64,000 nucleotides of DNA from a bacterium (GCA_019912885.1 JAIOHV010000229.1:3846-67845), one strand, 5' to 3'. Numbered from the stretch's first letter, positions 21,225 through 58,860 are shown. Translations and numbers: made by a program. The notes: generated from the sequence alone by a model not told the origin.

Positions 21225-24842
<3,618 letters not shown>

Positions 24843-24856
24843 ACAGGGGCACAAAA

Positions 24857-26407
<1,551 letters not shown>

Positions 26408-26409
26408 AT

Positions 26410-39697: not shown

Positions 39698-39915
39698 ATC
39701 AAGGCGCACGGCGGGCCGCGTGCCAAGGCGCGTATTGTAGATAGAGCCGCGCCGGTGTCAAGCAAATCCGCACCGATTCAAGGCGGGAATGACATGGGCT
39801 TTTCCCCGGGCATGTTTCGCCGCGCGTCGGGTTCGTCTCGCGGCGCGAGACGCGACGACGTTTCGCTCTTAGTCGAACGTTGCGTGTGTCGCGCGCGTTT
39901 TCTACGATCCGCGCC

Positions 39916-42774: not shown

Positions 42775-44622
42775 ATGTTTCGCTGCGCCCCTGCCATTCT
42801 CGTCCTGTTTTTGCTGTTCGCCGCCCCGTTTGCCGCCGGCTGTTCCTGCGGCGACGATGACACCGGCGACGACGACCTGGGCGATGACGACACCGGCGAC
42901 GACGACATGGACGACGACGATACCGACGACGACGACGTGGACGAAGACATGGACGATGACGACGCCGTTGACGACGATTCGGCCGACGATGACACCGATC
43001 CTCTCGATCGGGGAGGCCTGATCCCCGGCCCCGCCGATCCCGGTCACGATGCGGCGCTGGAGCTTTTGGCGGCGCGCTACGCGCAGCAGTTCCACGGGTT
43101 CATGACCGTACCGTTCGGCATGTCTCTCGAGGCCTATATCTCGGATCCGGACATGCGTGCCGAGATCGACGACTGGCTCGAAAACTCCGACCTCGACGAG
43201 ACGTTCGAGGAATATTCCGGCATCCACCCGTTCGACAACGCCGACGCCTACGGCGAGCACGGCGACCTCGGCATGTTCGGCGGCATGGCGTCAATCGGCG
43301 ACGTGTTCCGCTATGCGCTCGCGCGCGACCGCGGCGAGACGTTCGAGATCCCGATCGCCGAGTTGCGCCAGAACGTCATCGAGCTGATGGACGCGCTGCA
43401 CGTGTGCGTCGAGATCACGGGAGAGCCGGGCGTGGTGGTGCGCGGCATCCGCAAGATCGCCGAACCCGGACCGTTGCAGACGACCGAGCCGCTGTTCGAT
43501 ATCAACGGCGATCCGTATCCGCCGAACAAGGACGACAACGTCTGGCGCGAGGACAATTCCGGCGCGCATCCCGACTTCATCTGGGAAGACAACACGAGCA
43601 AGGACCAGCTCGACGGGTACATCTTCTCGATGGGCGCGGTGTGGGACATCGTCGCGGACGATCCCGATATTCCGCAGGCGAAAAAGGACGCGCTTATCGC
43701 CGACGCGGCGGCCATCGGCGACATGCTGATGGAGGTCGCGCCGGAGACGGGGCTGGATCTGTCGATTCGCGACGCGGACGGCCGCCTGACGCAATTCCAC
43801 GATATTCACCCACGCGACATGGGCTCGTTCGTCATCCCCGAATTTCTCGGCGTCGGCAACGGCTTCAACGCGCTGATGGCGCTTGGCATCGTCAAGACGA
43901 TCGCGTTCATCACGGGCGAGGAGCGGTTCAGGGATTTCTTCGCGGAGATGATCGAGGATCGCGGGTTCCTTGACTACGTGGACCAGACGGTCTTTCTGAC
44001 CAACAACGGACCGCTGACGAACTGGTCGAACGTCAACATGATGTTCGTGGCGATTTATCCGCTGCTGCGCTACGAGGCCGATCGCGATTTGCGCGCGTAT
44101 TGGCAAAAGGTGATGGCCGACGATCTGTGGGGCAGCCGCTTTTCGGACTGGGCCGTGTCCAACTCGCATCAGGCGTTTTTCGGCTTGATCTGGGCGTCGT
44201 TCAAAAACGGGGCGACGGACGACGCGGAGGCCGATACAGCCGCGTACGATCTCGCGGGCTTCAAGACGCCGCCGTACTGGCACGCGCCCAAAATCGTGAA
44301 CTGCGACGATGACGAGCTGGCCGCGGGCGAGTGCCTGGCGATCGACGGCACCACGATCATCACGCTTGCGGGTTACACGGATACGCACGGCGTCTTCCAT
44401 GCGTATCCCACGCACACCGGCGATCCGATTTCAACGGACCCGCTGCCGCGCACGATCCGGCCGCCGAGTAACTTCGACTGGCGTTCGCCGCCGTATGACG
44501 TCAACGGCGGCGGCGGCGTGCGCCTGAATCCCGGCGGCGATTTCCACGGCGCATATTGGCTTGGCCGGTTTATGCGACGCTCGAACGACACCGCGATCAA
44601 CGTCTCGCCGCGGGCGTGGTGA
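42775..44622 (+). CDS. Lipoprotein with N-terminal poly-Asp linker and large unassigned C-terminal domain
   Basis: Translation MFRCAPAILVLFLLFAAPFAAGC|SCGDDDTGDDDLGDDDTGDDDMDDDDTDDDDVDEDMDDDDAVDDDSADDDTD... shows a lipobox (FAAGC) followed by about 55 aa that is more than 70% Asp. The remaining 540 aa is unassigned (possibly alpha-helical hydrolase-like). Confidence 0.7.
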   Translation: MFRCAPAILVLFLLFAAPFAAGCSCGDDDTGDDDLGDDDTGDDDMDDDDTDDDDVDEDMDDDDAVDDDSADDDTDPLDRGGLIPGPADPGHDAALELLAARYAQQFHGFMTVPFGMSLEAYISDPDMRAEIDDWLENSDLDETFEEYSGIHPFDNADAYGEHGDLGMFGGMASIGDVFRYALARDRGETFEIPIAELRQNVIELMDALHVCVEITGEPGVVVRGIRKIAEPGPLQTTEPLFDINGDPYPPNKDDNVWREDNSGAHPDFIWEDNTSKDQLDGYIFSMGAVWDIVADDPDIPQAKKDALIADAAAIGDMLMEVAPETGLDLSIRDADGRLTQFHDIHPRDMGSFVIPEFLGVGNGFNALMALGIVKTIAFITGEERFRDFFAEMIEDRGFLDYVDQTVFLTNNGPLTNWSNVNMMFVAIYPLLRYEADRDLRAYWQKVMADDLWGSRFSDWAVSNSHQAFFGLIWASFKNGATDDAEADTAAYDLAGFKTPPYWHAPKIVNCDDDELAAGECLAIDGTTIITLAGYTDTHGVFHAYPTHTGDPISTDPLPRTIRPPSNFDWRSPPYDVNGGGGVRLNPGGDFHGAYWLGRFMRRSNDTAINVSPRAW

Positions 44623-46271
44623 AAAACGCGCGCGAGGACGCGGCTTTCGCGCCGAAAACGCGCGCGGTCGTCGCGATCGCCGTCGTGCTCGGCGCGGTGG
44701 CGATGGCGCATCTGGTCGAGCGCGCGATCAACCGAAAATACAACGGCGACGAGTTGCAGCACGCGCACGCGGTGTATCGCGTCGCACAAGGTGATCTACC
44801 GTTCCGCGATTTTTTCGAGCACCACCCGCCCGCGCTTTACTACGCGTCCGTTCCGCTCTACGAAATTTTCGCGCGCGATCCGCGCACGATGACGGCGCTG
44901 CGTTTCCTGATGCTCGCGTGCGTCGCCGCGACATTCGCCGCGCTGTTTGCGACGGCGTATCGCACCACGCAATCCGTCGCGCTCGCCGGCGTCGCGGGCA
45001 TCGCCTTTTTGTGGTGCACGGTCGTGCTCGACAAGGGCATCGAGTTTCGCCCCGACGGTCCGGCGACCGCGCTCATCGCGTGGGCGATTTATTTTCAGGC
45101 GACGAGCGGCGACACGCGACGGCGCTCGATCGTCGCGGCGCTTTTCTGGGGCCTGGCGCTGACGTTCACGCCCAAAGCCCTGTTCGCGTTTGCCGGCGCG
45201 ACGCTGTTTGAGATCGCGCGGAACGCCTTTGGTAGACGCAATGATGCGTCCGTACCCGCTCCCTTATCCTTCGCTTCCGCTCAGGACAAGCTCACGCGGT
45301 TTCAAACGCGAGAGATAGCGGTCTGGTTTGTCGCGGCCGCCGTTCCCGCGCTGCCGTGGGCGGTCGGTTACGCGCTCGCCGAGCCGCGGTCGATCCCCGA
45401 CCCGTGGTACGCGCCCGAGTTCGTGCGGGCGCTGCCCGGCGCGCTGCCCGCGATGGTCGATCGCCTGATCTTCTGGAACGCGAACTGGGCCAACACGTTC
45501 AGCCCGTTCGCGACGTTCGCGGACGTAGCGCGCGAAAATGCGGCGCTGGTTTTGTTTTCGATACTCGGCGTCGCGCTCGCGTTGCGCACCTTTGCGCAAA
45601 CTCGCGTCGCCGGTCCGCCGCTGCTATTCGCGCTCGTGCTCGCGTGCGGCGGCGCGGGGGCGTTCGCCGTGCACGTTCCCTACGCGCAATACTGGCTGTT
45701 GCTCGTCCCCGCGGCGGCGCTCGCCGCGACGCACGCCATCCACATTCTCGTGACGCGAGCGAATCTCGCCTTCATCGCCCGGGCGTACGGCATCCCCGAT
45801 CCGCCGGACGATCTTGAGTCCGCCTCCCCACGGATCGCGCAAGGACGACGGGGGACGGGGCTATTGGTCGGCGCGGCGCTGATCACGTCGCTCGGCATGG
45901 GCACGCTGGCGCGTCCGCTGCAAGGCCCGGCGGAATCGAACGCGAATCAGCGCGCGGCGATTTCGTTTTTTGTGAACGAGGTCGATCCGGCGTGGCCGGT
46001 GATGGGCGCGTGGACGGGCTGGGCCGCGTTCAATCCCACCGCGTCGTACTACCACTTCCTGCATCTGGAGGTGCGCAAGATGTTGCCGTTGCCGGTGCAA
46101 CGGGACGGCGGGCTCGCGGCGCTATCGCGCGCCAGGCTCGTGATCCGCGACGAGGAATTCGATCGGCTGCCGCGCGAAGTGATCGAAACGCTCGAACGCG
46201 ACTTCGTGCCGTTCACCGGGCCGATCTGGGCGTCACGGGACGTCGTTTCAAGGAAGAGACTGGAAGGCTGA
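44619..46271 (+). CDS. Polytopic membrane protein, GT-C/PMT_2-like (putative glycosyl- or mannosyltransferase)
   Basis: More than 10 TM helices are present. The first extracytoplasmic loop carries ...YNGDELQHAHAVYRVAQGDLPFRDFFEHHPPALYY..., a DE-containing motif typical of the ArnT/PMT GT-C superfamily. A GTG start overlaps the upstream stop (GTGA). Confidence 0.55.
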   Translation: MKNAREDAAFAPKTRAVVAIAVVLGAVAMAHLVERAINRKYNGDELQHAHAVYRVAQGDLPFRDFFEHHPPALYYASVPLYEIFARDPRTMTALRFLMLACVAATFAALFATAYRTTQSVALAGVAGIAFLWCTVVLDKGIEFRPDGPATALIAWAIYFQATSGDTRRRSIVAALFWGLALTFTPKALFAFAGATLFEIARNAFGRRNDASVPAPLSFASAQDKLTRFQTREIAVWFVAAAVPALPWAVGYALAEPRSIPDPWYAPEFVRALPGALPAMVDRLIFWNANWANTFSPFATFADVARENAALVLFSILGVALALRTFAQTRVAGPPLLFALVLACGGAGAFAVHVPYAQYWLLLVPAAALAATHAIHILVTRANLAFIARAYGIPDPPDDLESASPRIAQGRRGTGLLVGAALITSLGMGTLARPLQGPAESNANQRAAISFFVNEVDPAWPVMGAWTGWAAFNPTASYYHFLHLEVRKMLPLPVQRDGGLAALSRARLVIRDEEFDRLPREVIETLERDFVPFTGPIWASRDVVSRKRLEG

Positions 46272-46362
46272 AAGGCTGGAAGTCTGAAAGGTCATCTCGG
46301 GCCTGCGGTAGGCTTTATCGTCGATCTCTCTCCGCGCACTCCGCGCCTGGGCGTGAACCCTG

Positions 46363-48915
46363 TCAGCACGCGCAGCCGCTGTCGTGTTCGTCCACATCGT
46401 CGGGTTCGAGGTCCGGCGCGATGTCCTGGCCGTCATCGTCCGTGTCGTCGTCGTCATCGCTGCCGCGATCGAATGGCGGGGGGTCGGATACCGCGTCGCT
46501 CTTTGGCGTCGCCGTGATCGCGATATCGCGGAAGGCGTAGCCGCTTGCGTCACGCGCCACGACAATGCCGTGATACGTGCCCGCGTGCGCCGGCGTGAAC
46601 GATAGCACGCCGCCGAAAACGTCCGCGCCGGGCATGCCGTAAACGTCGACCCGCGCGGCGCTCGACGCCTGGTATCGATACGTGGCGCCGACCTCCACAA
46701 ACGCGCGTTCGGGCGCGCCGATCGCCGGCGCGACGAATTCGGTGGCTTCCGGCAGGCGGTCGATCAAAAAGAAGCGCAGCAAATCGACGACGAACAGGCT
46801 GAGCTGGTAGCGGTCGCCGATGGCCAGGCCCGCGAACAGGTTCGACACGTCGAGCAGCGCCGGGTCGGGCGCGCCGGCCAGGTGCGTTCCGTACCACGCG
46901 AGCAGGTACAGAAGCTGATAGCCCTCGTGCGTGAGCCGGTCGGCGGGATACCACAGATCATCCACAAGCGACGGGTCGAGCGCCGAATGGTGCAGGCGAT
47001 TTTGCGCCGTCGCCATTGATGCCGCGTACGCGACAAGATCGCCGCCCGCCGCGATCGTCGAGTTCGGGTCGCCCGCGGACACCGCTTGTTTGAACGCCGC
47101 GACGTGCGCCTCCATGACGCCGTTCGATGGAAACGCCACGCCGCGCACGCCCGAACCGCCGTTGCCGTCGAACGCGAGCGCGAGGAATTGCAGAAGCTGT
47201 TCGTCGAACGCATGCGCGCCTTCCATCCCGGCGGCGCGCGCTCGCGCGAGGTTCGTGTCGTAGCCGTCCGGATCGCGCAGATTGTCCGCGTAGCTCGGCA
47301 CGATGAGGCGATCGGCCGCGCCGAGGATCATGGGGTTCGCGACCAGGCCGCCGATCGCGTCCACGAGATCCGGCGCGCGGCCGGTGAGCGGCCGCAGGTA
47401 CACCTTGGCGACGAAGGCATCGCCGCCATCGGTGGCATGCTCGTTGTCCCAGATGACCACCTCGCGCCCGACGCGCGCGTTTACGTCGGCGAGGTCCGCG
47501 GCGGCAAGCGTCTGGCTGAACGTTTCCGTGCCGGTCCACATCACGCCGATGTCCGGGTGCAGGGCGAAAAGCGTATCGAGATAATCGTCGCCGCCCGCCC
47601 AGCTCTCCTGGCGGTTTGTCGAATACACCGTCGGCACGACGAGCATCGCAACGCGCTCGCCGGCCATGTCCGAAAGCGTCAGCCGCAGCCAGTTCGCGAG
47701 GTCGGTGTGCTTTGCGCCAAGCGCGCCGTCGACCGGCTCGGCCAGGTCGAACTCGATGTCGTCGAGCAGCAGCGTGAAATGGCGAAAGCCCGCGTCGACG
47801 AACGGCGCGAGCTTGCCGATGAGCGTCGCGCGCTCGGCCTCGTCTTCCATCGCCATGTCTTTGCCGGGGCTGATGCCGAACGAAAACGTGACGCCGACGC
47901 GCTCGCCCAGCCGGTGCAGTTCCGCGAAACGCGCGATGTCCTCGTCCGGATACGGTGTGCGCCACTCGTCGCGATGCAGCGGATCGTTTTTCGGGCCGTA
48001 GATGTAGAGCCCAAGCCCCGCGCGTCCGAGCAGGCGCATCATCGCGCGGCGCTCGGAGTGCGTCCACGGCGTGCCGTAAAAGCCCTCGACGACGCCACTT
48101 TGCGCGAAAACCGGCTCGATGCGCCACGGGATCTCCACGCGCGTCGTGCGGCTTTCCGTTCCGTCGGCGCGCAGTGTCACGATGACGGCTTCCGCGTTCG
48201 CGAAATCCGGCAGCGGGCCGTCCCACGTCTCGCGCGCGGGAAATTCGTCGATGAGATTTTCCGGCGTCGGCGCGTCGCCGAAATCCGTGTAATGAACGCG
48301 CACGATCTGCGGCGCGTTCGCGCTATCGGCAAGCGTGAAGGCGAGATGCAGCGCGCCGTCCGTTTCGGTGACGACGACGCTTCGCGCCGAGGCGGGCGGC
48401 ACGCCAAGCTCACGCGCGAACACGCGCAGCCTCACGAGCGCGGCGGGGCCGGCGTCGTACATCGTCAGCGTGACGCACCTGGCAACCTTGCCGGCGCCAA
48501 AAACGATGTCGTCATTCGGCGCGACGATGACCTCGTCGTTCGCGAGCGCGCCGCAATACGAAAACGCTCGCGCCTGGATGCCGCCGCCCGGCGGAGGGTT
48601 CCAGTCCATCTCCACGCGATCGGGCACGAAGCCGTCCGGCAGGAGCGGCGCGAAATCAAGCGTCAGCGTGACGCGCCCCTGGCGAGCGGGCTTCCACGAC
48701 GTGTCGCCGCGCTCGTCGCGGATGGTGTACGCCGCGTCCTCGCGCTCGTTCGGCCAGAAGCCGAGGAAGGTTTCGTGCGTGCGGTCGGCGACGATGCGGG
48801 CGTAAGGCGCCAGGTCGATCGGTTCCGATGACGCGGGCGTCGCCGCAAGAAGCATCGCGAACAACGCGGCGACAACACCCGTCGCGCTTCGCAAATTCAG
48901 CAACCGCATCCGCAT
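46363..48915 (-). CDS. Secreted GH84-family beta-N-acetylglucosaminidase-like (O-GlcNAcase-type) protein with C-terminal poly-Asp tail ending GCAC
   Basis: The signal peptide is MRMRLLNLRSATGVVAALFAMLLAATPASS. The catalytic-domain hallmark is SGVVEGFYGTPWTHSERRAMMRLLGRAGLGLYIYGPKND. The C-terminus reads ...DRGSDDDDDTDDDGQDIAPDLEPDDVDEHDSGCAC*. Confidence 0.75.
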   Translation of the reverse strand: MRMRLLNLRSATGVVAALFAMLLAATPASSEPIDLAPYARIVADRTHETFLGFWPNEREDAAYTIRDERGDTSWKPARQGRVTLTLDFAPLLPDGFVPDRVEMDWNPPPGGGIQARAFSYCGALANDEVIVAPNDDIVFGAGKVARCVTLTMYDAGPAALVRLRVFARELGVPPASARSVVVTETDGALHLAFTLADSANAPQIVRVHYTDFGDAPTPENLIDEFPARETWDGPLPDFANAEAVIVTLRADGTESRTTRVEIPWRIEPVFAQSGVVEGFYGTPWTHSERRAMMRLLGRAGLGLYIYGPKNDPLHRDEWRTPYPDEDIARFAELHRLGERVGVTFSFGISPGKDMAMEDEAERATLIGKLAPFVDAGFRHFTLLLDDIEFDLAEPVDGALGAKHTDLANWLRLTLSDMAGERVAMLVVPTVYSTNRQESWAGGDDYLDTLFALHPDIGVMWTGTETFSQTLAAADLADVNARVGREVVIWDNEHATDGGDAFVAKVYLRPLTGRAPDLVDAIGGLVANPMILGAADRLIVPSYADNLRDPDGYDTNLARARAAGMEGAHAFDEQLLQFLALAFDGNGGSGVRGVAFPSNGVMEAHVAAFKQAVSAGDPNSTIAAGGDLVAYAASMATAQNRLHHSALDPSLVDDLWYPADRLTHEGYQLLYLLAWYGTHLAGAPDPALLDVSNLFAGLAIGDRYQLSLFVVDLLRFFLIDRLPEATEFVAPAIGAPERAFVEVGATYRYQASSAARVDVYGMPGADVFGGVLSFTPAHAGTYHGIVVARDASGYAFRDIAITATPKSDAVSDPPPFDRGSDDDDDTDDDGQDIAPDLEPDDVDEHDSGCAC

Positions 48916-51110
48916 CCTCCGTCATCGTCGTCGTCATCGTCATTCCAACAATCGGGACAGCCATCCCAAGCGTAGTCGTCATCGTCTGCGTTCCCGCTAT
49001 CGTCGTCGCCCATGTCATCATCAGTCGTATCGTCATCCACGTCGTCATCCGGCGGCATCGGCCCCAGGCCGCCGAACGCGCGGTAGGGTGCGTACGCCGC
49101 GGCGAGCGCATTGGCCGCGGGCTTCCACGTCGTGCGATCCATGTGGATGAGGCCCATCGACTGAAGGGGCGTGGCAAAAAATTCCGGCAGGCCATTTTTC
49201 GTAAACCAGTTGAACGCCGTCCACCAGCTCGTGCCCGCGAGGATTCCATCGGGGTTCACCTCGCCCTCCTCGGTCAACGCGGCGATCTCGGCAAACGCCA
49301 CCCACGTGTCGTCGAAGACATCCTTCTGCTTTTGCGCCTCGGAGTCGTCGGCCTCCGACCAGTAGCCGAACTCGGTCGCCACCATCGGCACGTCGGGGAA
49401 ACGCGCCTGGTGTTCGGCGACGAACGCCAGCGTGTCGGCGTACGGATCGTCGTCGTAGAAAACGCCGTAGTACATCGTCCATCCGGCGAGATCGAGATCG
49501 TTCACCGTTGCCGCGAGGATCTGCCAGCCCAGGTCCGCGGCCGGCGACTGGCTGACGATGCGGCCATCGTCGTACGCCGCGTGATCGTCGATGAGCGACG
49601 CGTTGTAGTCGCGGATCTGCGGCGTGAACACGAATGGGCACTCGTTCATCGTACCCCACACGAGGATCGACGGGCGCGAAAGGCCCATGAACACCATCTC
49701 GCGGAACATCTGTTGCGGCACGCGGCGATACGTCTGATAGCCCCAGTTCCAGCCCATCATCCAGTACACCGGCAGCTCGGTCCAAACCGCCAGGCCCATG
49801 CGATCGGTGAGCAGGTACGTGTACGGATGATTGGGGTAGTGGCCCGTGCGCAGGAAGATCGCGTTGAGATCGAGGATGACGTCGAGGTCGTCGCGGATGC
49901 GTTCAAACGTCGCGGTGCGGCCGGTGTCCGGCCACTCCTCGTGCCGCGCCACGCCGGGGAAAAACGCGACGCGATCGTTCACGAACATCTTGCCCTCGCG
50001 CGCGTCCACGGTACGCACGCCGAACTGGTTGTGGCGTTCGTCGGCGAGCGCGCCGTCGATCTCGAGCGTCGAACGCAGCACATAAAGATTCGGTTCGTTC
50101 GGGGTCCATAGCGCGACATCCTCGATTCGCGGAACCAGATGCACGACGCGGACGCCACCCGGTGGAATCGTCACGAATGTCGCGGCGCCGCCCGACAACA
50201 CCGCCGCCTCGCCCGCGATCGCCGAAGCGCGCGGATCGCCAAGCCATGCGCCGCCTGTGCGATCGGCGATGAGCGCCTCGATGCCCACCCGCGCATCGAC
50301 GGCGTTGGCGCCGCTATTCGCGACGACGATGCGCACGTCGATCAAACCGCGCCGGCCGACCGGCCGCACGTCGGCACGGACGATGTGAACGGCGGGCAGC
50401 GATTCGAGGTAGATGTCTTGCAACACGCCCGTATAGCTCCACCAGTCCATCAGAAACCACGCGGGGATGGCGTCCTGGCGCGCGCCGGGAAACGGCTTGT
50501 CGATGCGGATCGCAAATACGATCTGCTCGCCCGGCACGACGTGCGGTGTCACGTCGAACGCGAACGGCAGATCGCCGCCTTCGTGCACGCCGGCCCATTC
50601 TCCGTTCACCCACAGATCCGTGATGTAGTTCGCGCCCAGGCACACGAGACGCACCACCTCGTCGAAGTCCGCGGGCACGTCGATCGCGCGGCGATACCAA
50701 ACACCGCCGTGGTAGCCCTCGGGGATGCCGGACTCGTCTCCCGCGAGATCGCCCTCGTGGCCCGGTAGTTCGCGCGTCGCCCACGCGGAGTCGTCGTAGT
50801 CCGATTCGAATCGGCCGGCTGCTTCGGCTTCGAGCGCGGCGATACCGTCCGCGTCGCGCGCGCCGAACGAGATGTCATGATCCAGATCGACGCGCTCGCG
50901 TTTCCACGTACCGGAAAGGTCGAGCGTATCGTGATCCTGCGGATCGAAATCGGGCAGCGGCACGCCCGATTGAAACGGCACGGGGAAGCCGTCGATCCAT
51001 TCGATGGAAAACGTCGGCGCCAGGTCGCCTGGCGCGCTCGCAAGGGCCGGCGCGGGAAGGCCGACCGCAAGCCATAACGTCGCCATCACACGCGCCCGAA
51101 TGCATTTCAT
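48897..51110 (-). CDS. Secreted GH2-family glycoside hydrolase with C-terminal poly-Asp/Cys tail (…GGCGCGC)
   Basis: The signal peptide is MKCIRARVMATLWLAVGLPAPALA. GH2 features are NEPNLYVLRSTLEIDG... and the acid/base motif VWGTMNECP, with TIM-barrel region ...RTGHYPNHPYTYLLTDRMGLAVWTELP. The C-terminus reads ...DDDVDDDTTDDDMGDDDSGNADDDDYAWDGCPDCWNDDDDDDDGGCGCGC*. The track ORF extends to 51134. Confidence 0.75.
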   Translation of the reverse strand: MKCIRARVMATLWLAVGLPAPALASAPGDLAPTFSIEWIDGFPVPFQSGVPLPDFDPQDHDTLDLSGTWKRERVDLDHDISFGARDADGIAALEAEAAGRFESDYDDSAWATRELPGHEGDLAGDESGIPEGYHGGVWYRRAIDVPADFDEVVRLVCLGANYITDLWVNGEWAGVHEGGDLPFAFDVTPHVVPGEQIVFAIRIDKPFPGARQDAIPAWFLMDWWSYTGVLQDIYLESLPAVHIVRADVRPVGRRGLIDVRIVVANSGANAVDARVGIEALIADRTGGAWLGDPRASAIAGEAAVLSGGAATFVTIPPGGVRVVHLVPRIEDVALWTPNEPNLYVLRSTLEIDGALADERHNQFGVRTVDAREGKMFVNDRVAFFPGVARHEEWPDTGRTATFERIRDDLDVILDLNAIFLRTGHYPNHPYTYLLTDRMGLAVWTELPVYWMMGWNWGYQTYRRVPQQMFREMVFMGLSRPSILVWGTMNECPFVFTPQIRDYNASLIDDHAAYDDGRIVSQSPAADLGWQILAATVNDLDLAGWTMYYGVFYDDDPYADTLAFVAEHQARFPDVPMVATEFGYWSEADDSEAQKQKDVFDDTWVAFAEIAALTEEGEVNPDGILAGTSWWTAFNWFTKNGLPEFFATPLQSMGLIHMDRTTWKPAANALAAAYAPYRAFGGLGPMPPDDDVDDDTTDDDMGDDDSGNADDDDYAWDGCPDCWNDDDDDDDGGCGCGC

Positions 51111-51134
51111 GGCCGGCATGATATCAGACTCCAA

Positions 51135-53114
51135 CTATTTGGAAGCACCGAGAAGCGCGAGATTCTCGCGGGCGGGCGCGAAGTTCGGATCGACCCAGAT
51201 CGCGTGCTCGAACGCCTTGCGCGCCCCGGCCGGATCGCCGGTGCGAAGGCGCGCGACGCCGAGATTCGTCCAGGTCGAGGCGTCCCACGCCCCGTAGATC
51301 ACCGCGCGCTCCAGGTGCGCGCGCCCCGCGCCGACGTTATCCGCCTCGAGCGCGAACAGCCCAAGCAGCGCGTGGCAGCTTCCGTTTTTTTCGTCGGTAT
51401 CGACGCACGCCCTCGCCGCCTCGATCGAGGCTTCGCGCGCGCCGGCCTGCCGCGCGACCGTGGCGAGCATGAACAGGTTGTGCGTGTCGGCAACGTCGGC
51501 CACGGCGCGGCGCGCCTCGGAAAGCGCTTGCACGAGCGTGGCCTCGCCGGCGCCGCGAAGGCCATACATCGGCTCCCACGGTTTGAGCGTGCGAAACGCG
51601 CGCTCGCTCAGATCGGCGGTGGCCGGTTCGACGTGCGCCAGCACGATCGCGCGCCGGTCGATCCACACAAGCTCCCAGTGCGGCGCGTCGACGATCTCGC
51701 GCTCGATCGCCATCAGGGGCTTGGGTTCGTATGGGCCCTTGTTCGCCAAAAGCGCGACAGGGATGCCTTTGGCGGCCAGCCACTCTGGAAACTTTTCGCG
51801 CGGCAACAATTCGAATAGGTGCCGCTGCGCCTCGAATCGGGTGTCCCAAAACGCCGACAGGCGCGGCCAGGCGCGCCACTCGACGTACCCGCCGAACGCG
51901 ATGTCGTTGTACAGGCGCAGGTCGGCGGCCTCGCGTTCGAGAAATGTCACCGCGTCGCAAGGCAGGCGCGAGCAATCGATCCCCGCGCCCCATGCCGGCA
52001 GCGTGCGATGGGCGTGCACGAACCCCGCGGCGAGCACGGCGGCCGACAACACCGGCACGAGTCGCTGGCGCGAGATACGCTCGACGATACCCGCGAACGG
52101 CCGGTCCGCGAGAACCTCGAAATAAAGCGGCACGGCGACGACGGCGAAATCGCCGACGAAACGCACCGTCTTTAACGCCACCAGGCCGAAAACCCAAAAC
52201 GCGGCAAGCGAAAACCACCGGCCGCGCCGGATCGCGAACGGCGTCGCGATCGCGCCGGCCGCGAGCATCCCGAAGAATTCCGGATGCAGCGCGAAACTCG
52301 TGGCGACCTCCTCATCCGTCGCGACGAGCTTGTTGTACTGCGTGAGGTTGTACCAGAGCCGCGCGTAGTTGAAGCCCGGATGCATCGTCGAAAACACCGA
52401 AACGACCGCGACGAGCAGAAACGTGCCGAGAAGCACGCGCGTTTTCATCGTGAGCGCCCGCGCGCGTCCATCCGCGATCGCCGAGATCGCGAACGCGAGC
52501 CCCGAAAGAAAAACCCCAAGCGCGACGAGCGGATGGCTGTTCGCCCACACCGCGCCCAACAGCGGCAACGCCGCGAAGACGCGGAAGTCGGCATCCTTTT
52601 GGCGCATCGCGCGCACGAGAAAAAACATGAACGCCGCGAGCATCAGGTACGTAATCATGAAGGGGCGGATCTGGAGCCGAAACCGGATGACCAAAAACGA
52701 CGCGACGAGAATCGGCGCGACGATCGCCGGCGCCAGGCCAACGGACCGCCCAAGCCGCCAGAGGAACGCGTAGATGCCGACAAAGACAAGCGACTGAAAA
52801 AGGATGAGGCCGGTAACGTTGACGGAATCCAGGCGCGAGAGGCCATAAAGCACGATCTCGATCAACCAGTCGTGATGCTTGATGACGCGGCCGTCGTTCG
52901 TGTGCGTCACGACGCTGGGGAACGCCAGCTCGCCGCGCTCGAGAATCTGCTCGCCCGTCTTGACGTGCCAGAACAGGTCGTAATCGTGCACCTTCAGGAA
53001 CGTGACGAACAAAAGCGCGCCGAAAAAAATCGCGGCGAGATATTCGGACGAAAGGCGCACGGTCGCGGGCGCGCGCGCCACGTCGCCGGTTGCGTTGGGA
53101 GGTTGAGCGTTCAT
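51135..53114 (-). CDS. Polytopic membrane protein with C-terminal TPR repeats (TMTC/PMT-like GT-C candidate)
   Basis: About 11 TM helices in the N-terminal 400 aa are followed by TPR-like repeats (...AGRAHLERAVIYGAWDASTWTNLGVARLRTGDPAGARKAFEHAIWVDPNFAPARENLALL). The start is ATG (cat 53112-53114). Confidence 0.6.
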   Translation of the reverse strand: MNAQPPNATGDVARAPATVRLSSEYLAAIFFGALLFVTFLKVHDYDLFWHVKTGEQILERGELAFPSVVTHTNDGRVIKHHDWLIEIVLYGLSRLDSVNVTGLILFQSLVFVGIYAFLWRLGRSVGLAPAIVAPILVASFLVIRFRLQIRPFMITYLMLAAFMFFLVRAMRQKDADFRVFAALPLLGAVWANSHPLVALGVFLSGLAFAISAIADGRARALTMKTRVLLGTFLLVAVVSVFSTMHPGFNYARLWYNLTQYNKLVATDEEVATSFALHPEFFGMLAAGAIATPFAIRRGRWFSLAAFWVFGLVALKTVRFVGDFAVVAVPLYFEVLADRPFAGIVERISRQRLVPVLSAAVLAAGFVHAHRTLPAWGAGIDCSRLPCDAVTFLEREAADLRLYNDIAFGGYVEWRAWPRLSAFWDTRFEAQRHLFELLPREKFPEWLAAKGIPVALLANKGPYEPKPLMAIEREIVDAPHWELVWIDRRAIVLAHVEPATADLSERAFRTLKPWEPMYGLRGAGEATLVQALSEARRAVADVADTHNLFMLATVARQAGAREASIEAARACVDTDEKNGSCHALLGLFALEADNVGAGRAHLERAVIYGAWDASTWTNLGVARLRTGDPAGARKAFEHAIWVDPNFAPARENLALLGASK

Positions 53115-53151
53115 GCGTTTGAAACGGCGCCAAGTGTAGTAGGCTCGGCTC

Positions 53152-53904
53152 GTGCGCATCAAGGTCGATTTGCACAACCACACGAATTTCAGCTTCGACG
53201 GCGAGATGAACCCGCGCCGCTTTGTCGAGGTCTACACACGCCTTGGATTCGGCGCGGTGGCGGTGACCGATCACAACACGCGCCTTGGCGCGCTGGCGGT
53301 CGCCGAGCTCGATCCGCCGTTTCGCGTCATCGTTTCGTGCGAGGTAAAATCGCGCGAGGGCGAGATCATCGGACTGTTTCTCGACCGCGACATCCCCCGG
53401 GGGCTGTCCGCGATCGACACCGCGAAGGCGATCCACGACGCGGGCGGGCTGACGCTTTTGCCGCACCCGATGATCGATGTGGTGCCGACGCGCATCGATC
53501 CGCGCGTGCTGCCCGCGGTGCTCGAACACATCGACATCATCGAGTGCGTCAACGCGCGTAACGCCGATCCCGCGTTTGACCGCGACGCGGCGCTTGTCGC
53601 GAACGCTTACGGCAAGGCGCGCGGCGCGGGGTCGGACGCACATGCGATAAGCGGCGCGGGCACGGGATACGTGCTGATGGAGCCGTTTGACGGACCGGCG
53701 GATTTTCTCGAAAAGCTCCATCGCGGCACGATCGTCGCGCGCAAGCGCGAGGCCATGGCGCGCTCGCTTGTCAACTTCGCTTACGGCAACACGCTCGGGC
53801 AGATCCGCGTCGGGCGGATGATCCGCGCGCACAGGCGCGGCGTGCCGCTACGTCGCCTTTGGGATCGGCGCGCCCCGCTCGGCGACAAGACGCCGGGCGT
53901 TTGA
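53152..53904 (+). CDS. PHP-domain metal-dependent phosphoesterase
   Basis: Translation VRIKVDLHNHTNFSFDGEM...VAVTDHNT...LLPHP carries the PHP His motifs. It has a GTG start and its 3' end overlaps the convergent RluA gene, so the true stop may be earlier. Confidence 0.65.
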   Translation: MRIKVDLHNHTNFSFDGEMNPRRFVEVYTRLGFGAVAVTDHNTRLGALAVAELDPPFRVIVSCEVKSREGEIIGLFLDRDIPRGLSAIDTAKAIHDAGGLTLLPHPMIDVVPTRIDPRVLPAVLEHIDIIECVNARNADPAFDRDAALVANAYGKARGAGSDAHAISGAGTGYVLMEPFDGPADFLEKLHRGTIVARKREAMARSLVNFAYGNTLGQIRVGRMIRAHRRGVPLRRLWDRRAPLGDKTPGV

Positions 53905-54606
53905 GGCCAGATCCCCGAACCGTTCGGTCCAGAAATCGGGCGGCGGCGCGGCGACGCGCACCTCGCGCCCGCCGACCGGATGGCCGAACGCGACGATCGC
54001 CGCATGAAGCGCGATCGCTCCGCCAAGCCCGCCGGGGCCGCCGTATTTCGTATCGCCGACAATCGGCGCACCGATGTGCGCGAGCTGCGCGCGAATCTGG
54101 TGGCTGCGTCCGGTGCCAAGGCGGACGGCGACAAGCGTCCGCGCGCCGTGCGTCGCGATGGTTTCGTAACGCAGTGTCGCTTCCTTCGCGCCGGGCTCGT
54201 TTGCGCCGACGACGCGGCTGACGTTCGTGAGGCGATCTTTCTTGAGGTAGTGCGTCAACGCCCCCTCGCCCGGCGAACCCGCGACAACGGCAAGGTAGAT
54301 CTTCTCGACCCACCCCTCGCGAAACGCGGCCGACAGGCGCGCGGCGGCTTTGCCCGTTTTGGCGACGACCACGAGCCCCGACGCGGGTCTGTCGATGCGA
54401 TGCACCGCTGTCGCGTAGACGTTGCCCGGCTTGTCGTAGGTACGTTTCAGGTAGTCGCGCGCGAAATCAACGAGGCACGCGTCGCCGGTGCGATCGCCCT
54501 GCACCGGCAGGCCGGGCGGTTTGTCGAAAACGATAACGTGGTTGTCTTCGTATGCGACGCGCGGCTCGCCGAACGACGCGCCGTGCGTTCGACCGGGGCG
54601 CATCAA
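53848..54606 (-). CDS. Pseudouridine synthase, RluA family
   Basis: Motifs AVHRIDRPASGLVVVAK (catalytic Asp) and GRSHQIRAQLAHIGAPIVGDTKYG are present. Confidence 0.8.
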   Translation of the reverse strand: MMRPGRTHGASFGEPRVAYEDNHVIVFDKPPGLPVQGDRTGDACLVDFARDYLKRTYDKPGNVYATAVHRIDRPASGLVVVAKTGKAAARLSAAFREGWVEKIYLAVVAGSPGEGALTHYLKKDRLTNVSRVVGANEPGAKEATLRYETIATHGARTLVAVRLGTGRSHQIRAQLAHIGAPIVGDTKYGGPGGLGGAIALHAAIVAFGHPVGGREVRVAAPPPDFWTERFGDLASNARRLVAERGAPIPKAT

Positions 54607-55964
54607 TACGGGGGCGGCGGCGGCAGCAGCGCGTGCAACAGATTCACGAAGCCGCGCAGGTCGTCGCGGAATCCCGTCGGCGTGGAGTCCTCAAACCAGC
54701 CCGCCAGATCGATCGTGACGTTCGGCAGGATCGCCGGCATTCCGAGCGACGACAGCACGCCGTTGACGTAAGCCAGCGGGAACGGCGTATCGACGCCGGG
54801 CTGCGTGTCGTCGCCCGTGCGGTCGAGGAGGCTATCGGCGAGGCCCTTGAACATCACCTCGAACGCGAGCGCGGATCCCATGCCCGCCTCGTCGAGTTCG
54901 CCGAAGAACGGGATATCGAAATGGTCGAACGCATCGAACACGAAATTTCCGTTGACGTCGATGTACCGGATGATGTCGCCGGCTTGATCGTCGGTCTCCG
55001 AGCGTACGATGTCGAACGTGTCGCCCGCGTTGCGAAAGCCAAGGCCAAGCTCGATCTGCGACAACTCAAAGGCGGCCTGCCCGTCCGTGTCGCGCGTCAG
55101 GAAGTCGGGGAACGCGGGGTCGTTGAGGATTTCGTAGAGGATATCGACCACGATGGAGATGATTTCGCCGACGTCGTAGCTGCCCCAGTTGATCTCCGCG
55201 AGGCCGAAAATGTAGGACAAGTCGAGATCGAAATCGAGCACGGTGATAAGGCGGATGAGCCCGCCGAATCCGCCGGTGAAGCCCATGACCGCGGCGATCT
55301 CGGATTGATCCCAGTCGTCGCCGCCGGGCGAGACGACCGTTTCGAAGTCGAAGATGATCGGCATTTCGGCCAGCTCGAACGAGAGGCACTCCGCTTCCTG
55401 AAGCTGCGGGCCGAGCTGAAAAACGTCCTCGGTGAACTGAAGGACCAGCCCGTCGAACGCCGCGTCCAGAACCGCGTCGATCACCGATTGCAGACTGTCG
55501 GACGCGGCTTTGGTCGGCGGCTCGTGGAAGCCCATGAACGAGTTGATGTACGTGACGATCACGTCGATCGTGGAGGCTTCCATGAGGAAGCCGGCGAGCA
55601 CCAGACCGTAGGCCGCGTCCGCGTCGGAGGAGTCGTCCGCGAGCGCCTGAACGAACTCGGCGTGCGCAAGACCCGCCGCCCCTGCTTCGAGGTACGTGAT
55701 GCCAAGCAGGGTGTGCTCGTTCGTGGACGGCGCCGGTTCCTCGCAGCCCGCATCGTCATCCGCGTCGTCGTCGTTGGCGTCGTCGTCGAAATCGTCGTCC
55801 ATGTCGAAATCGTCGTCCGCGTCGTCGTCGCCTTGCGTATCGTCATCGGCGTCGTCATCGCCGGAGGAGGAATCGTCGTCGTCGTCATCGCCGCACGAGC
55901 AGCCGGCGGCGAAAGCGAACGCGAATACCACGAGAAACACGAAGACGAAGCGAGACGATTTCAT
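54603..55964 (-). CDS. Lipoprotein with N-terminal poly-Asp linker (paralogous N-terminus to 42775 gene), acidic unassigned domain
   Basis: Translation MKSSRFVFVFLVVFAFAFAAGC|SCGDDDDDDSSSGDDDADDDTQGDDDADDDFDMDDDFDDDANDDDADDDAGC... has the same lipobox plus SCGDDD junction as the 42775 gene. The GGGAGGGG SD sits before the ATG (cat 55962-55964). The track ORF extends to 56114. Confidence 0.7.
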   Translation of the reverse strand: MKSSRFVFVFLVVFAFAFAAGCSCGDDDDDDSSSGDDDADDDTQGDDDADDDFDMDDDFDDDANDDDADDDAGCEEPAPSTNEHTLLGITYLEAGAAGLAHAEFVQALADDSSDADAAYGLVLAGFLMEASTIDVIVTYINSFMGFHEPPTKAASDSLQSVIDAVLDAAFDGLVLQFTEDVFQLGPQLQEAECLSFELAEMPIIFDFETVVSPGGDDWDQSEIAAVMGFTGGFGGLIRLITVLDFDLDLSYIFGLAEINWGSYDVGEIISIVVDILYEILNDPAFPDFLTRDTDGQAAFELSQIELGLGFRNAGDTFDIVRSETDDQAGDIIRYIDVNGNFVFDAFDHFDIPFFGELDEAGMGSALAFEVMFKGLADSLLDRTGDDTQPGVDTPFPLAYVNGVLSSLGMPAILPNVTIDLAGWFEDSTPTGFRDDLRGFVNLLHALLPPPPPY

Positions 55965-56109
55965 GGACCCCTCCCGGATGCGCGCCATGGTGGCAAATTC
56001 GCGCACGCCTGACAACGCAAACGCGGCGGCCGGGTAGCCGCCGCGTTTTGGATTTCGGATTCTCGATCGCGGAATTCGGACCGCGGACCCAACAGCGCCC
56101 GCGCGGTTT

Positions 56110-56183
56110 GTCACCCTGAGCGAAGCGAAGGGCCTACAATCGTGCCGGCGCGGGGCGAGATCCTTCGCTTCGCTCAGGATGAC
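56110..56183. repeat. Long imperfect inverted repeat (23-nt arms, about 28-nt spacer)
   Basis: The arms gtcaccctgagcgaagcgaaggg ... tccttcgcttcgctcaggatgac match 21/23 on reverse-complement. It is a candidate terminator or structured element between two minus-strand genes. Confidence 0.6.
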
Positions 56184-56197
56184 AGCCCCCTACGAAT

Positions 56198-56295
56198 GGC
56201 CGACCGCTGATAGCCGATCGCCGATGACCGATCGCTGACGGCCGATCGCTGATGGCCGATCTCCGTTGGCCGATCGCTGATGGCCGACCGCTGAA
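56198..56295. repeat. Tandem repeat, about 7 copies of a 14-bp unit (GGCCGATCGCTGAT consensus)
   Basis: Units ggccgaccgctgat / agccgatcgccgat / gaccgatcgctgac / ggccgatcgctgat / ggccgatctccgtt / ggccgatcgctgat / ggccgaccgctgaa are intergenic. Confidence 0.8.
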
Positions 56296-56302
56296 CGCTG
56301 GC

Positions 56303-57223
56303 CTAGCTCCCGCAGCAGCCGCCCGTGACCTGTCCCTCGGGCCAGCCGGCGCCTTCCTCTTCCTCTTCGGTACCGATGTTCGGATCGAGGTCCGACTCGT
56401 CGTCGTCATCGGTGAGGTCGGGGGTATCGTCTTCGTCCTCCTCCGAGAGGCAGGATTTGGTCGCCTCGTCGCAGATCGTGCCTTCCGCGCAGGGGTTGCC
56501 GGAATGCGCGCAATCCTGGTCCTTGAAGGAGCACGACTCCTCGCCGTTGCAGAACAGGCCGTCGTCCTCGCAAAGGGGCGCCTCGCCCTCGACGCAATGA
56601 TAGTTCACGCACGTTTCGGCGCCCGTGCACCAGTCGTGGTCGTCGCAGTGCTCATCGATGACGCATTCCTGGATGGCGTCGGTGGAGATGTCGTCGATCA
56701 GCCAGTTGTTGCCGGTGCCGGAAACCATGACGTACGCCATGCCCGGCGCTTCCACGCGCAGCGTGTCGAGCCGGCCGGTGCCGAGGTTGTCATAAATCCC
56801 GACTTCCTGATCGAGCACCGTCCCCAACTCGTCGTAGGCGGTCAGCGTGATGCCGGAACTGACGGAGTAGCCAAGCTCGAAATACGTCGCATAGGACTGC
56901 GTGAAGCTAATGACGCCGTTGCCCTGATCGGTGCCGAGCCACGCGAAGAAATTGCCGTTCGAAAAGAACTGCGTCGGGATGGGATAGAGGTCGGTGACCG
57001 CGCCGTTGGGATAGCTGCCGTTGTAGTCGTTGGTGCGCCAGTCGCCGTAGAGCCAGTCGTAGCCGGCGGTGTTCGTGAACTGCAAGCCCGTGATCGTGCT
57101 GAAGATCTTGCCGCCGTCCCAGCCGTTTTCGAAATCGATGAATCCGGCGTTTGCCGGCAGCGCGGCGATTAGGCCCGCGCAAAGGGCAAGCAAAGCCAGC
57201 CCGAAAATCAAAAGGCGTTTCAT
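56303..57223 (-). CDS. Secreted Cys-rich protein with C-terminal acidic tail ending GGCCGS
   Basis: The signal peptide is MKRLLIFGLALLALCAGLIAALPANA (SD AAGGACAGGA). The N-terminal domain is Gly/Asn/Tyr-rich. The C-terminal third has more than 20 Cys (CxxxC spacing, EGF/knottin-like). The tail reads ...EEDEDDTPDLTDDDDESDLDPNIGTEEEEEGAGWPEGQVTGGCCGS*. Confidence 0.7.
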   Translation of the reverse strand: MKRLLIFGLALLALCAGLIAALPANAGFIDFENGWDGGKIFSTITGLQFTNTAGYDWLYGDWRTNDYNGSYPNGAVTDLYPIPTQFFSNGNFFAWLGTDQGNGVISFTQSYATYFELGYSVSSGITLTAYDELGTVLDQEVGIYDNLGTGRLDTLRVEAPGMAYVMVSGTGNNWLIDDISTDAIQECVIDEHCDDHDWCTGAETCVNYHCVEGEAPLCEDDGLFCNGEESCSFKDQDCAHSGNPCAEGTICDEATKSCLSEEDEDDTPDLTDDDDESDLDPNIGTEEEEEGAGWPEGQVTGGCCGS

Positions 57224-57654: not shown

Positions 57655-57991
57655 GAAAAGCCCCTCGCTCCGCGCCGCCTGCCCCAAGCAACCGAAGGCG
57701 TCCGGCGCGGCGTCCGAATCGGACACGCGGTATGCCTAAAACGAAACGCACGGGGCCGCAAGGGCGCAGCGCGCCGGCCGCGGCGACCCCGCTCGCGGTC
57801 GGCGACTCGCACCGCGGGCGCGGGGGGTTCTCTCCGATCGAGTAAGCGGATAGAATGCGTCAAATTTGCAAGGGGGAATGTGAGCGTGGTACGCGAATTA
57901 ACAGCGGAGCGAGGCCCAGCACCACTAGGCCAAGGTCAGTTTTTTGCGCGGAATGGGGAATCTAGCAGGCACCTGTCACGGTTTTTTTACG

Positions 57992-58666
57992 ATGAATAAA
58001 TTAATTTTGGCAGCAATTTGCCTTGTAGCTGGCGGCTGCGAACTATATCATCCGGCACCGCAGATCAAGCCAGAAGACCGGACCGCGAAAGCTGAGTCGG
58101 CAATAAATTCAATTGATAATAACATTGAACAAATGAAAGCTCAGAACAGAGATAAGCTTGACATCTTGTCCTATAAATGCGAAATGGATTCTTATATATA
58201 CAATAATTACCATCTTCGATATGACTTTACGGCGTGCCACGAATTAAAGCTACAAAAAGAACGCGATCTAAAATCACTACAACGGGAGCAATATCGAAAA
58301 AGAATAGGGACAGACGATAGCGAGGAAAATCCCGAAAAAGCACTAAAATATTTTTGCCACAATTTTGAACAATTGCTGCTTGCAGAAATCAAGCTATATG
58401 GATCCATGGAAGATACCAAAAAAATTATGCCGCTATCAAAGCACCTACAGAATCAGCGCAATATCACTGAATTTCAAGCGCAAAGAAATGTCTACGTCAA
58501 AGCAACACGGGGATCGCTTGCGAAATATTATAAACTTGGCGGAACTATTAATATTAAAAAAGAATTCGAGAAAGGGCAAGATGGCATAACGCTGGCGTGT
58601 CCAACTATTTCTCCGCATATATTCGGATATATTAGCAGATATAACTTAATGCTAAAGTTCAAATAA
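57992..58666 (+). CDS. Foreign low-GC lipoprotein (hypothetical)
   Basis: Translation MNKLILAAICLVAGGC|ELYHPAPQ... has a lipobox. The protein is about 225 aa and K/N/Y/E-rich. Local GC drops sharply (roughly 35-40%) between about 57840 and 58690, unlike the flanks. Confidence 0.65.
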   Translation: MNKLILAAICLVAGGCELYHPAPQIKPEDRTAKAESAINSIDNNIEQMKAQNRDKLDILSYKCEMDSYIYNNYHLRYDFTACHELKLQKERDLKSLQREQYRKRIGTDDSEENPEKALKYFCHNFEQLLLAEIKLYGSMEDTKKIMPLSKHLQNQRNITEFQAQRNVYVKATRGSLAKYYKLGGTINIKKEFEKGQDGITLACPTISPHIFGYISRYNLMLKFK

Positions 58667-58693
58667 TTTAAGGCAAAAAAAACGGAAAAAAAC

Positions 58694-58710
58694 GGGGACA
58701 GTCACCTATT
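58694..58710. repeat. Inverted copy of the 17-bp core (ggggacagtcacctatt) of the 57414/57479 repeats
   Basis: It is an exact reverse-complement of aataggtgactgtcccc and lies at the right edge of the low-GC insert. Confidence 0.7.
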
Positions 58711-58860
58711 TTCCCCCTCTTTAATCGTGCAATTGTTGTCCAAAAAGAATGGCGAGACGTCGTCGTGGCGGGTTGTCTTTGTCTTTCGTTTGCGACTTGC
58801 TTCATAAACGTGTCTCCCGGACCTTAAAAAGGGCGTCTCCGCTTCGGCGTTCCTGGCCGG

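Follow-up and report, generated by a model that had tools for sequence, protein, structure and literature searches.

Poly-Asp tails ending in G-C-G-C: a candidate helix-less, MYXO-CTERM-like anchoring signal on exported proteins of Lernaellota-like bacteria

Introduction

To our knowledge, all prokaryotic C-terminal sorting signals described so far (LPXTG, PEP-CTERM, PGF-CTERM, GlyGly-CTERM, MYXO-CTERM and its Cys-type relatives) combine a membrane helix with a basic tail, both of which are removed by a dedicated enzyme. The system closest to the one described here is MYXO-CTERM. Its signature contains an invariant Cys and frequently reads G-C-G-C, and its helix is removed by the myxosortase MrtX (Guo, Haft and Wall, mBio 2025; PMC11980579). 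In the model proposed for this processing, lipidation of the Cys by an as yet unidentified enzyme precedes cleavage of the protein just after the Cys (PMC11980579). Here we examined a 64,000-nucleotide stretch of bacterial DNA (GCA_019912885.1 JAIOHV010000229.1:3846-67845), below called the window, in which three exported proteins end in an acidic tail closed by a short Cys/Gly motif, G-C-G-C in one of them. Two lipoproteins of the same region carry a similar poly-Asp stretch behind the Cys of the lipobox. The motif sits at the exact C-terminus, is conserved in orthologs and recurs in related genomes, yet neither a helix nor an Arg cluster follows.

We propose that the tail is a helix-less anchoring tag which resembles a MYXO-CTERM signal in an already ‘pre-cleaved’ state, and that its terminal Cys is probably modified. 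Judged from sequence comparisons, we assign this reading a probability of roughly 55%. Alternatives are weighed below where the respective evidence is presented.

Results

Five Asp-rich exported proteins within 15 kb

An original prediction for this DNA had claimed five genes with Asp-rich tethers in 15 kb. All five were found in place. A six-frame scan of the 64 kb (G+C 64%) confined Asp-rich runs to the open reading frames (ORFs) of P1, GH84, GH2, P8 and P9, which are among the nine genes of the region 42.7-57.3 kb. The features are as follows.

42775-44622, + strand: P1, lipoprotein of an unnamed family, 615 aa, from ORF and translation; the globular domain starts at ...LIPGPADPGHD
42775-42843, + strand: P1 signal peptide with lipobox F-A-A-G-C, from reading of the sequence; Cys23 is the predicted lipid-modified residue
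42844-42999, + strand: P1 N-terminal tether, S-C-G plus (D3-4 x)n, 52 aa (49 aa after SCG)
46363-48915, - strand: GH84 beta-N-acetylglucosaminidase (PF07555, E = 6e-68) with type-I signal peptide, N-terminus MRMRLLNLRSATGVVAALFAMLLAATPASS
46366-46461, - strand: GH84 acidic C-terminal tail, 32 aa, ending S-G-C-A-C, then TGA
48897-51134, - strand: GH2 glycosidase (PF02836, PF02837, PF00703) with type-I signal peptide; called from 51119 in the database
48900-49055, - strand: GH2 poly-Asp C-terminal tail, 52 aa, ending D7-G-G-C-G-C-G-C, then TGA
54603-55964, - strand: P8, second lipoprotein, 453 aa, N-terminus ...FAFAFAAGC followed by SCGDDDDDD
55746-55901, - strand: P8 lipobox Cys22 (F-A-A-G-C) and tether S-C-G-D6...(DDDx)n, 51 aa
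56303-57223, - strand: P9, Cys-rich secreted protein, 306 aa, with type-I signal peptide; identical to P0168 / K8I61_20490
56306-56443, - strand: P9 Asp/Glu-rich C-terminal tail, 46 aa, ending W-P-E-G-Q-V-T-G-G-C-C-G-S, then TAG

Translation confirmed the predicted junction FAAGC-SCG-DDD in P1 and P8, with about 50 aa of (D3-4 x)n behind it; the N-terminus of P1 reads MFRCAPAILVLFLLFAAPFAAGC, followed by SCG and 49 aa of (D3-4 x)n. A lipobox is a hydrophobic region ending with [LVI][ASTVI][GAS]-C, and both proteins satisfy the lipobox pattern (...LFAAPFAAGC in P1, ...FAFAFAAGC in P8). Neither had a significant match in Pfam or NCBIfam. At the other end, the translated C-termini preceding the stop codons are ...SDDDDDTDDDGQDIAPDLEPDDVDEHDSGCAC in GH84, with DEHDSGCAC as the final letters, ...DGCPDCWNDDDDDDDGGCGCGC in GH2, and ...EEEEEGAGWPEGQVTGGCCGS in P9, the last residues of which are WPEGQVTGGCCGS. 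The acidic stretches before the terminal Cys comprise 30-50 residues. The GH2 protein is identical to P0001 / K8I61_20465, and a copy is also present on a 3.5-kb contig.

These C-termini are exceptional within the window. At least two Cys among the last eight residues occurred in three of 36 likely genes, i.e. GH84, GH2 and P9, compared with 0.14 expected from the window Cys frequency of 1.2%. The same three were the only ones with at least 19 Asp or Glu in the last 45 residues; every other one of the 36 genes had at most 10.

The tails end at the Cys motif

The original prediction had the tails of GH84, GH2 and P9 end without a following helix. Downstream translation showed no membrane helix in any frame. 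The TGA stop codon of GH2 falls within the start region of GH84; on the 3' side of GH84 about 90 nt of non-coding DNA separate it from a convergent gene; and the TAG of P9 is followed by a 14-bp tandem repeat. Read-through or a frameshift into a hidden helix was rejected, as no hydrophobic segment lies past any of the three tails. The repeat itself (56196-56294) consists of about seven tandem copies of the 14-bp unit ATGGCCGATCGCTG, or alternatively of 2.3 copies of a 42-bp unit, and is located between the P9 stop and the P8 upstream region.

The motif was conserved in the orthologs. For GH2, about 30 orthologs with 42-57% identity from many metagenomes have C-termini of poly-Asp linker plus GCGC, with CCG, CCGLL, CGGLL, ACGC and GCGW as occasional variants. 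Nine tailed GH84 orthologs (38-51% identity) end with SCGC, GGCGC, GCGCG, CCGF, CCAD or GCGI. The P9 orthologs (40-66% identity) have an acidic linker and then (L)WP[EK]G[KEQ]V[TS]GGC[CG]G?C? as their very last residues. Loss of the Cys motif in orthologs or continuation into a helix had been named beforehand as evidence against the prediction. Neither was seen: the motif was kept at the C-terminus in all three families, and none of the orthologs of GH84, GH2 and P9 had a tail continuing into a helix.

The pre-terminal (L)W-P-[EK]-G-[KEQ]-V-[TS]-G-G is specific for the P9 family (P0169-P0207) and absent from other tagged families. Some members of this family end with CGC plus two hydrophobic residues (TF, TL, LF, VF), similar to a CaaX box.

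The tail alternates with other anchors

Members of one protein family carried different anchors. In GH84, the nine orthologs with a tail have a signal peptide; P0237 (51% identity) and about 15 proteins from the next clade lack the tail and have a lipobox at the N-terminus. Both together were present in none. In the P1 family all Lernaellota-type orthologs (52-64% identity) carry a lipobox with poly-Asp at the N-terminus and lack a C-terminal extension. The Myxococcota homologs (38-46% identity, one labelled Sandaracinaceae) possess a plain signal peptide, no poly-Asp, and a C-terminal linker-GCGC followed by a helix and RRR; their C-termini reach 29.6 and 23.7 bits with TIGR03901 (cut-off 20). 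Finally, GH2 homologs in Ignavibacteria and Melioribacteraceae carry the C-terminal domain (CTD) of the type IX secretion system (T9SS) at residues 694-769, right after the catalytic domains, the position taken by the tail in the window protein. PF18962, the T9SS CTD, had no match in the window proteins (Pfam).

Of all arguments for an anchoring role of the tail, this complementarity within families is the strongest. The tail behaves like an alternative to a lipid anchor.

The T9SS domains could also be read differently. The tail may be a removable export or recognition signal which is read by an outer-membrane translocon, T2SS-like (type II secretion system) or other, or by a peptidase, and is then cut off, leaving the mature protein free. 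The variants with one to three residues past the last Cys (CCGLL, CGCTF, GCGW), which look like trimmed CaaX boxes, would be in line with this. However, the tail is disordered and of low complexity, unlike the folded CTDs, and its exchange with N-terminal lipoboxes and MYXO-CTERM points to anchoring and not to release. Besides, a tail which is read by a secretion system may still serve for anchoring, as MYXO-CTERM proteins depend on the T2SS (PMC11980579). We consider release of the mature protein unlikely.

The tag is distributed lineage-wide

A back-translated pattern, D4-(0-4 residues)-GCGC-stop, was used to scan one genome per species in 185,579 species. It matched at least 120 loci. Among the 120 matches listed, 97 loci belonged to ten related metagenome-assembled genomes (MAGs), two of which bear the name FEN-1099 (FR-FEN-1099-1 and HK-STAS-FEN-2). 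FEN-1099 is the candidate phylum Lernaellota (PMC9324843). The 97 listed loci contained at least 113 in-frame ORFs ending (DDDx)n...D6-8-[S/G/N]-GCGC-stop. The other 23 listed matches were discarded as chance: they were single loci in 23 unrelated taxa and all were out of frame, ended with TGG or formed ORFs of a few residues. The poly-Asp-GCGC tag is a lineage-wide feature of many unrelated protein families and is not specific for one locus. The window genome (locus tags K8I61_...) has orthologs with 52-64% identity in the tagged MAGs and probably belongs to the same lineage as these Lernaellota-type MAGs; for it and for eight of the ten MAGs the assignment to Lernaellota is by shared orthologs and the shared tag and not by phylogeny.

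GCGC was the predominant ending, closing 108 of 132 acidic tails in the related loci. The same MAG loci contained 24 further ORFs with a D-rich C-terminus not ending with GCGC; 21 of them had a Cys within the last four residues, with endings such as GGCA, CCGC, ACGC, GCAC and GCCG. This variation bears on the possibility that the terminal C-x-C forms a disulfide tether which cross-links the enzymes to each other, to a partner in the surface layer or outer membrane, or to matrix, with no lipid involved. Two close Cys at a flexible, exposed terminus of Sec-exported proteins would be suited for this purpose, and the P9 family is itself Cys-rich. Yet a single Cys suffices in several families (GGCA, SGCA, GMCA endings). 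A disulfide also leaves unexplained the extreme C-terminal position, the identity with the MYXO-CTERM signature and the alternation with N-terminal lipoboxes. Furthermore, many Lernaellota were described as anaerobes (PMC9324843). A disulfide tether is therefore rather improbable, though of the alternatives we take it most seriously.

The tag resides on exported proteins. All three tailed window proteins, GH84, GH2 and P9, start with a signal peptide, and a type-I signal peptide was recognized in 84 of 96 complete tagged ORFs as against a plausible lipobox in about two of 96 (calls were made by a heuristic, not by SignalP). Domains in the cargo include PKD, Kelch propellers, S8 subtilases, M14, M28 and C25 peptidases, BNR/sortilin, TIG and purple acid phosphatase. 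This is the typical cargo of cell-surface sorting tags.

In the tagged ORFs of the MAG loci the Gly and Cys codons of GCGC varied freely at synonymous positions, and TGA, TAA and TAG were all used as stop codons. This demonstrated that selection acts on the peptide and not on the DNA, and a DNA-level element behind GCGC was rejected on these grounds. The same data speak to the origin of the tails. Slippage of GAC repeats might have generated functionless acidic extensions by neutral low-complexity expansion. Indeed, the P1 and P8 tethers contain GAC repeats with a 15/30-nt period (Tandem Repeats Finder), and the C-terminal linker is highly variable, with a median of about 50 residues and a range of 12-224. 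Nevertheless, the terminal Cys motif is kept in deep orthologs despite synonymous codon turnover, and the tails are restricted to signal-peptide proteins and complementary to other anchors. We attach next to no weight to a purely neutral origin.

The same poly-Asp spacer at both termini

The spacers behind N-terminal lipoboxes and those before C-terminal Cys motifs were compared.

Spacer length, median: 48.5 aa at the N-terminus (n = 40), 46 aa at the C-terminus (n = 133)
Asp fraction of the spacer: 0.51 at the N-terminus, 0.57 at the C-terminus
Asp run nearest to the Cys, median length: 5 at the N-terminus; 6 at the C-terminus, where it is partly fixed by construction because the set came from a pattern requiring D4 near GCGC

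Both sets have a modal Asp run of 3, the fillers T, A, G, V and S, and less than 0.6% Lys plus Arg. Internal Asp runs have a median of 3, and at both termini the longest run usually lies next to the Cys or within a few residues of it; the modal gap between Asp run and Cys is 3 at the N-terminus and 1 at the C-terminus.

The original prediction had gone further and had regarded the N- and C-terminal junctions as mirror images. This holds for the composition of the spacer and for the Asp run adjacent to the Cys. It does not hold for the second Cys of C-S-C-G, which is found in all three such proteins of the window genome (P1, P8 and the paralog K8I61_00385), while the lipoproteins of the relatives mostly have C-G-Dn, C-S-G-Dn or C-Dn. 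As this second Cys is peculiar to one genome, CSCG was rejected as a general mirror of GCGC.

The acidity of the spacer invites another explanation, namely that the tail is a metal- or mineral-binding device. Poly-Asp is a known binder of Ca2+ and of minerals. With an Asp content of 0.5-0.6 and almost no basic residues the tail would bind Ca2+, Mg2+ or mineral, the Cys pair would bind soft metals, and the enzymes would dock non-covalently on cation-rich lipopolysaccharide, exopolysaccharide or particles. But the same spacer follows the predicted lipidated Cys of ordinary lipoproteins, which would already be anchored, and it is the terminal GCGC which is conserved, not charge alone. Metal binding is an unlikely primary function; cation binding by the spacer as a secondary property is compatible with an anchoring tag.

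A 65-aa ORF on the minus strand of locus L097 (FR-FEN-1099-1) consists only of a lipobox signal peptide (VIIAC), poly-Asp and a terminal GGGCGC. Between two anchoring Cys, one at either end, this mini-protein would contain spacer only.

Other tethers also exist in the window genome. An S9 prolyl-oligopeptidase-type protein (39880-42051, + strand) has an N-terminal membrane anchor and a Pro/Thr/Ala-rich linker, TPTPTPTPSPAASPAPAA, without poly-Asp, which indicates that more than one type of tether is in use.

No support for a dedicated glycan machine at the locus

The remaining genes between P1 and P9 are the following.

44556-46271, + strand: multi-pass membrane protein, 571 aa, a neighbour only; the earlier label GT-C is unconfirmed
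51135-53183, - strand: multi-pass membrane protein with C-terminal TPR repeats (weak matches), a neighbour only
53152-53904, + strand: PHP phosphoesterase
53848-54606, - strand: RluA pseudouridine synthase

From this arrangement it had been suggested that the five genes together with GT-C/TPR membrane neighbours form a dedicated system for remodelling or display of surface glycans. GH84 and GH2 are indeed adjacent, with an overlap of 19 nt, and a P1 ortholog has a GH2 ortholog in its vicinity in one other genome, and a weak PMT_2 match in a further one. The suggestion was not borne out. More than 100 unrelated proteins from dozens of families across whole genomes carry the tag, synteny is loose, conservation of the 571-aa membrane protein next to P1 orthologs was not seen, and the region also includes genes for a PHP phosphoesterase and an RluA pseudouridine synthase. 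Neither membrane neighbour had a GT-C match in Pfam or among PDB sequences; an AlphaFold2 single-sequence model of the 571-aa protein (pLDDT 42) was too poor for a structure search. A dedicated system is very improbable. The five tagged genes seem to be a cluster of exported glycan-active proteins and not a dedicated machine.

The rest of the window is unrelated and contains, according to Pfam, radical-SAM/DegT/LPG-synthase genes, narGHI, MFS transporters and two-component systems. A cluster with radical-SAM/B12, DegT aminotransferase and LPG-synthase-TM genes extends over 0.8-15.7 kb and looks like a locus for modification of an envelope glycolipid or an aminosugar. Within it, a YfhO-like membrane protein (6755-9205, - strand) has a terminal hydrophobic helix and RRARRQD, but no Cys motif. 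A respiratory nitrate reductase cluster (21123-27830, + strand) encodes the narG-like molybdopterin, narH-like Fe-S and narI gamma subunits; it is preceded by a cytochrome c gene and followed by two MFS transporters and a pair of sensor kinase and response regulator. Beyond P9, an island of low G+C (57900-59100; 0.55 compared to 0.64 in the window) may be foreign DNA. It contains an ORF (57944-58666) with no family match and a lipoprotein-like start, ...LVAGGC.

Discussion

The findings can be accommodated by a single mode of tethering which would come in two forms, a poly-Asp spacer of about 50 residues lying directly beside an anchoring Cys in both. The N-terminal form would be an ordinary lipoprotein in which the lipobox Cys becomes the lipidated first residue and the spacer follows. 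In the C-terminal form the protein would be exported by a cleavable signal peptide and would end with the spacer and G-C-G-C-COOH or the variants C-C-G, C-A-C and G-C-A. Such a tail is what processing of a MYXO-CTERM protein is expected to leave, the helix and the Arg cluster, i.e. the part removed by myxosortase, not being encoded in the first place. One or both of the terminal Cys would be covalently modified in the periplasm, most likely with lipid, by an enzyme which need not cut as there is no helix. The protein would then be held on the membrane or at the cell surface; the charged spacer would serve as an extended stand-off and may bind Ca2+ or Mg2+.

Several points weigh against an anchoring tag of this kind, in addition to the qualifications attached above to the Cys-proximal Asp runs and to the assignment of the genomes. 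The prokaryotic C-terminal signals known to us hold the substrate at the membrane by their helix; a soluble tail needs another route to a membrane enzyme. The D-D-G before the Cys does not resemble a lipobox, which makes canonical Lgt an unlikely modifier. The dedicated enzyme expected to co-occur did not turn up: the window contains no candidate for a CPBP protease, Lgt, a sortase or another modifying or sorting enzyme (Pfam on most genes) and no lspA either, and CPBP proteases were not found in about 1 Mb of related loci by a crude scan with a regular expression and transmembrane-segment counts. Lastly, lipidation of the Cys is unproven even in MYXO-CTERM itself (PMC11980579).

A more general formulation is offered tentatively, as a possibility to which we would not give even odds. 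Lernaellota-like bacteria would probably have at least 100 exported proteins per genome with a poly-Asp plus G-C-G-C-COOH anchor; a periplasmic enzyme which acts on soluble substrates would lipidate the terminal Cys or attach it covalently in another way. If correct, a prokaryotic C-terminal signal for sorting or anchoring would for the first time break the rule of motif, helix and basic cluster, and it would be an extracytoplasmic bacterial counterpart of the eukaryotic -CXC lipid boxes. Modification of the Cys would then require neither helix nor myxosortase, and mature MYXO-CTERM proteins are predicted to end at the second Cys, the myxosortase cleavage site. Provided that the terminal Cys is modified, the tail would represent a new way in which bacteria attach proteins to their envelope, and the Cys-modifying enzyme of MYXO-CTERM, an open question in the work on that system (PMC11980579), would have a natural substrate for which no cleavage is required. 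On the practical side, current annotation calls the tagged proteins ‘hypothetical’ or plain hydrolases and overlooks their likely surface location. A poly-Asp spacer beside an anchoring Cys is, moreover, a simple and portable stand-off design which may interest engineers of protein display.

Comparison with known systems

The original prediction of an undescribed C-terminal anchoring signal gained support: the tail alternates with a lipobox, MYXO-CTERM or a T9SS domain, and we found no description of such tails or of poly-Asp tethers in the literature searched on MYXO-CTERM, GCGC, Lernaellota/FEN-1099, Asp-rich lipoprotein linkers and C-terminal Cys lipidation. The paper describing Lernaellota does not mention them (PMC9324843). 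In NCBIfam release 20.0 no sorting domain matched whole tailed proteins (E <= 0.1) or tails alone (E <= 10), while the P1 homologs from Myxococcota, used as controls, were matched. Whole tailed proteins had no match to a sorting domain in Pfam.

Classical lipoproteins (lipobox; Lgt/LspA/Lnt) are represented by P1 and P8, which have a standard signal peptide, a lipobox and an acidic stretch after the +1 Cys. Disordered N-terminal tethers are known among such lipoproteins, and a few acidic residues after the lipoprotein Cys also constitute the lipoprotein export signal of Bacteroidota. Different are the length of the spacer, about 50 aa of (DDDx)n, the second Cys at +3 (C-S-C-G) in this genome and, above all, the C-terminal form, which has no counterpart.

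The eukaryotic prenylation boxes (CaaX; Rab -CXC/-CC) likewise have one or two Cys at the C-terminus or within one to four residues of it, endings of the -CXC and -CC(X) type are found among the tails, and CCGLL and CGCTF resemble CaaX. Rce1 of the eukaryotic system is a relative of myxosortase. However, the eukaryotic boxes reside on cytosolic proteins and are served by cytosolic prenyltransferases, whereas the tagged proteins are exported by Sec; we know of no periplasmic equivalent of C-terminal prenylation in bacteria.

With T9SS CTD (PF18962), PEP-CTERM, GlyGly-CTERM, LPXTG and JDVT-, Synerg- and CGP-CTERM the tail shares the position, the kind of cargo and the many copies per genome. Of these, the T9SS CTD folds into a domain of about 75 aa, unlike a disordered tail of low complexity. 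The others are tripartite, with motif, helix and basic cluster, and none of them ends at the signature motif.

The closest relative is MYXO-CTERM (TIGR03901 / TIGR03382; Myxococcota), with which the tail has in common the G-C-G-C signature, the disordered linker before it, Sec-exported surface enzymes or adhesins as cargo, and dozens of copies per genome. The initial claim that the two are distinct stands in part. The absence of helix, Arg cluster and match to a hidden Markov model separates them; the GCGC signature, which is that of MYXO-CTERM, and the MYXO-CTERM of the P1 homologs connect them. The most fitting description of the tail is a MYXO-CTERM signal truncated behind its second Cys. 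The linker is nearly pure poly-Asp, and the lineage is FEN-1099/Lernaellota-like, not Myxococcota. A helix-bearing Cys tag was also encountered in this lineage: locus L120 (753-1922, - strand; MAG CTOTU18531) encodes a secreted, glycosidase-like protein whose tripartite Cys tag is complete (...GGSGGCGGELTGAPDADLLVMMLPAMMGLALLRRKK) and which had no match in NCBIfam. Such tags were rare in the sample; their presence implies that a sorting protease may exist. In the window, the orthologs and the at least 113 tagged ORFs, in contrast, the tail stops at the last Cys or one to two residues past it, and with no helix encoded there is nothing left for an intramembrane protease to remove. We regard the poly-Asp-GCGC tail as a new, MYXO-CTERM-like, helix-less candidate signal; should modification of the terminal Cys be confirmed, its mechanism may turn out to be a distinct one.

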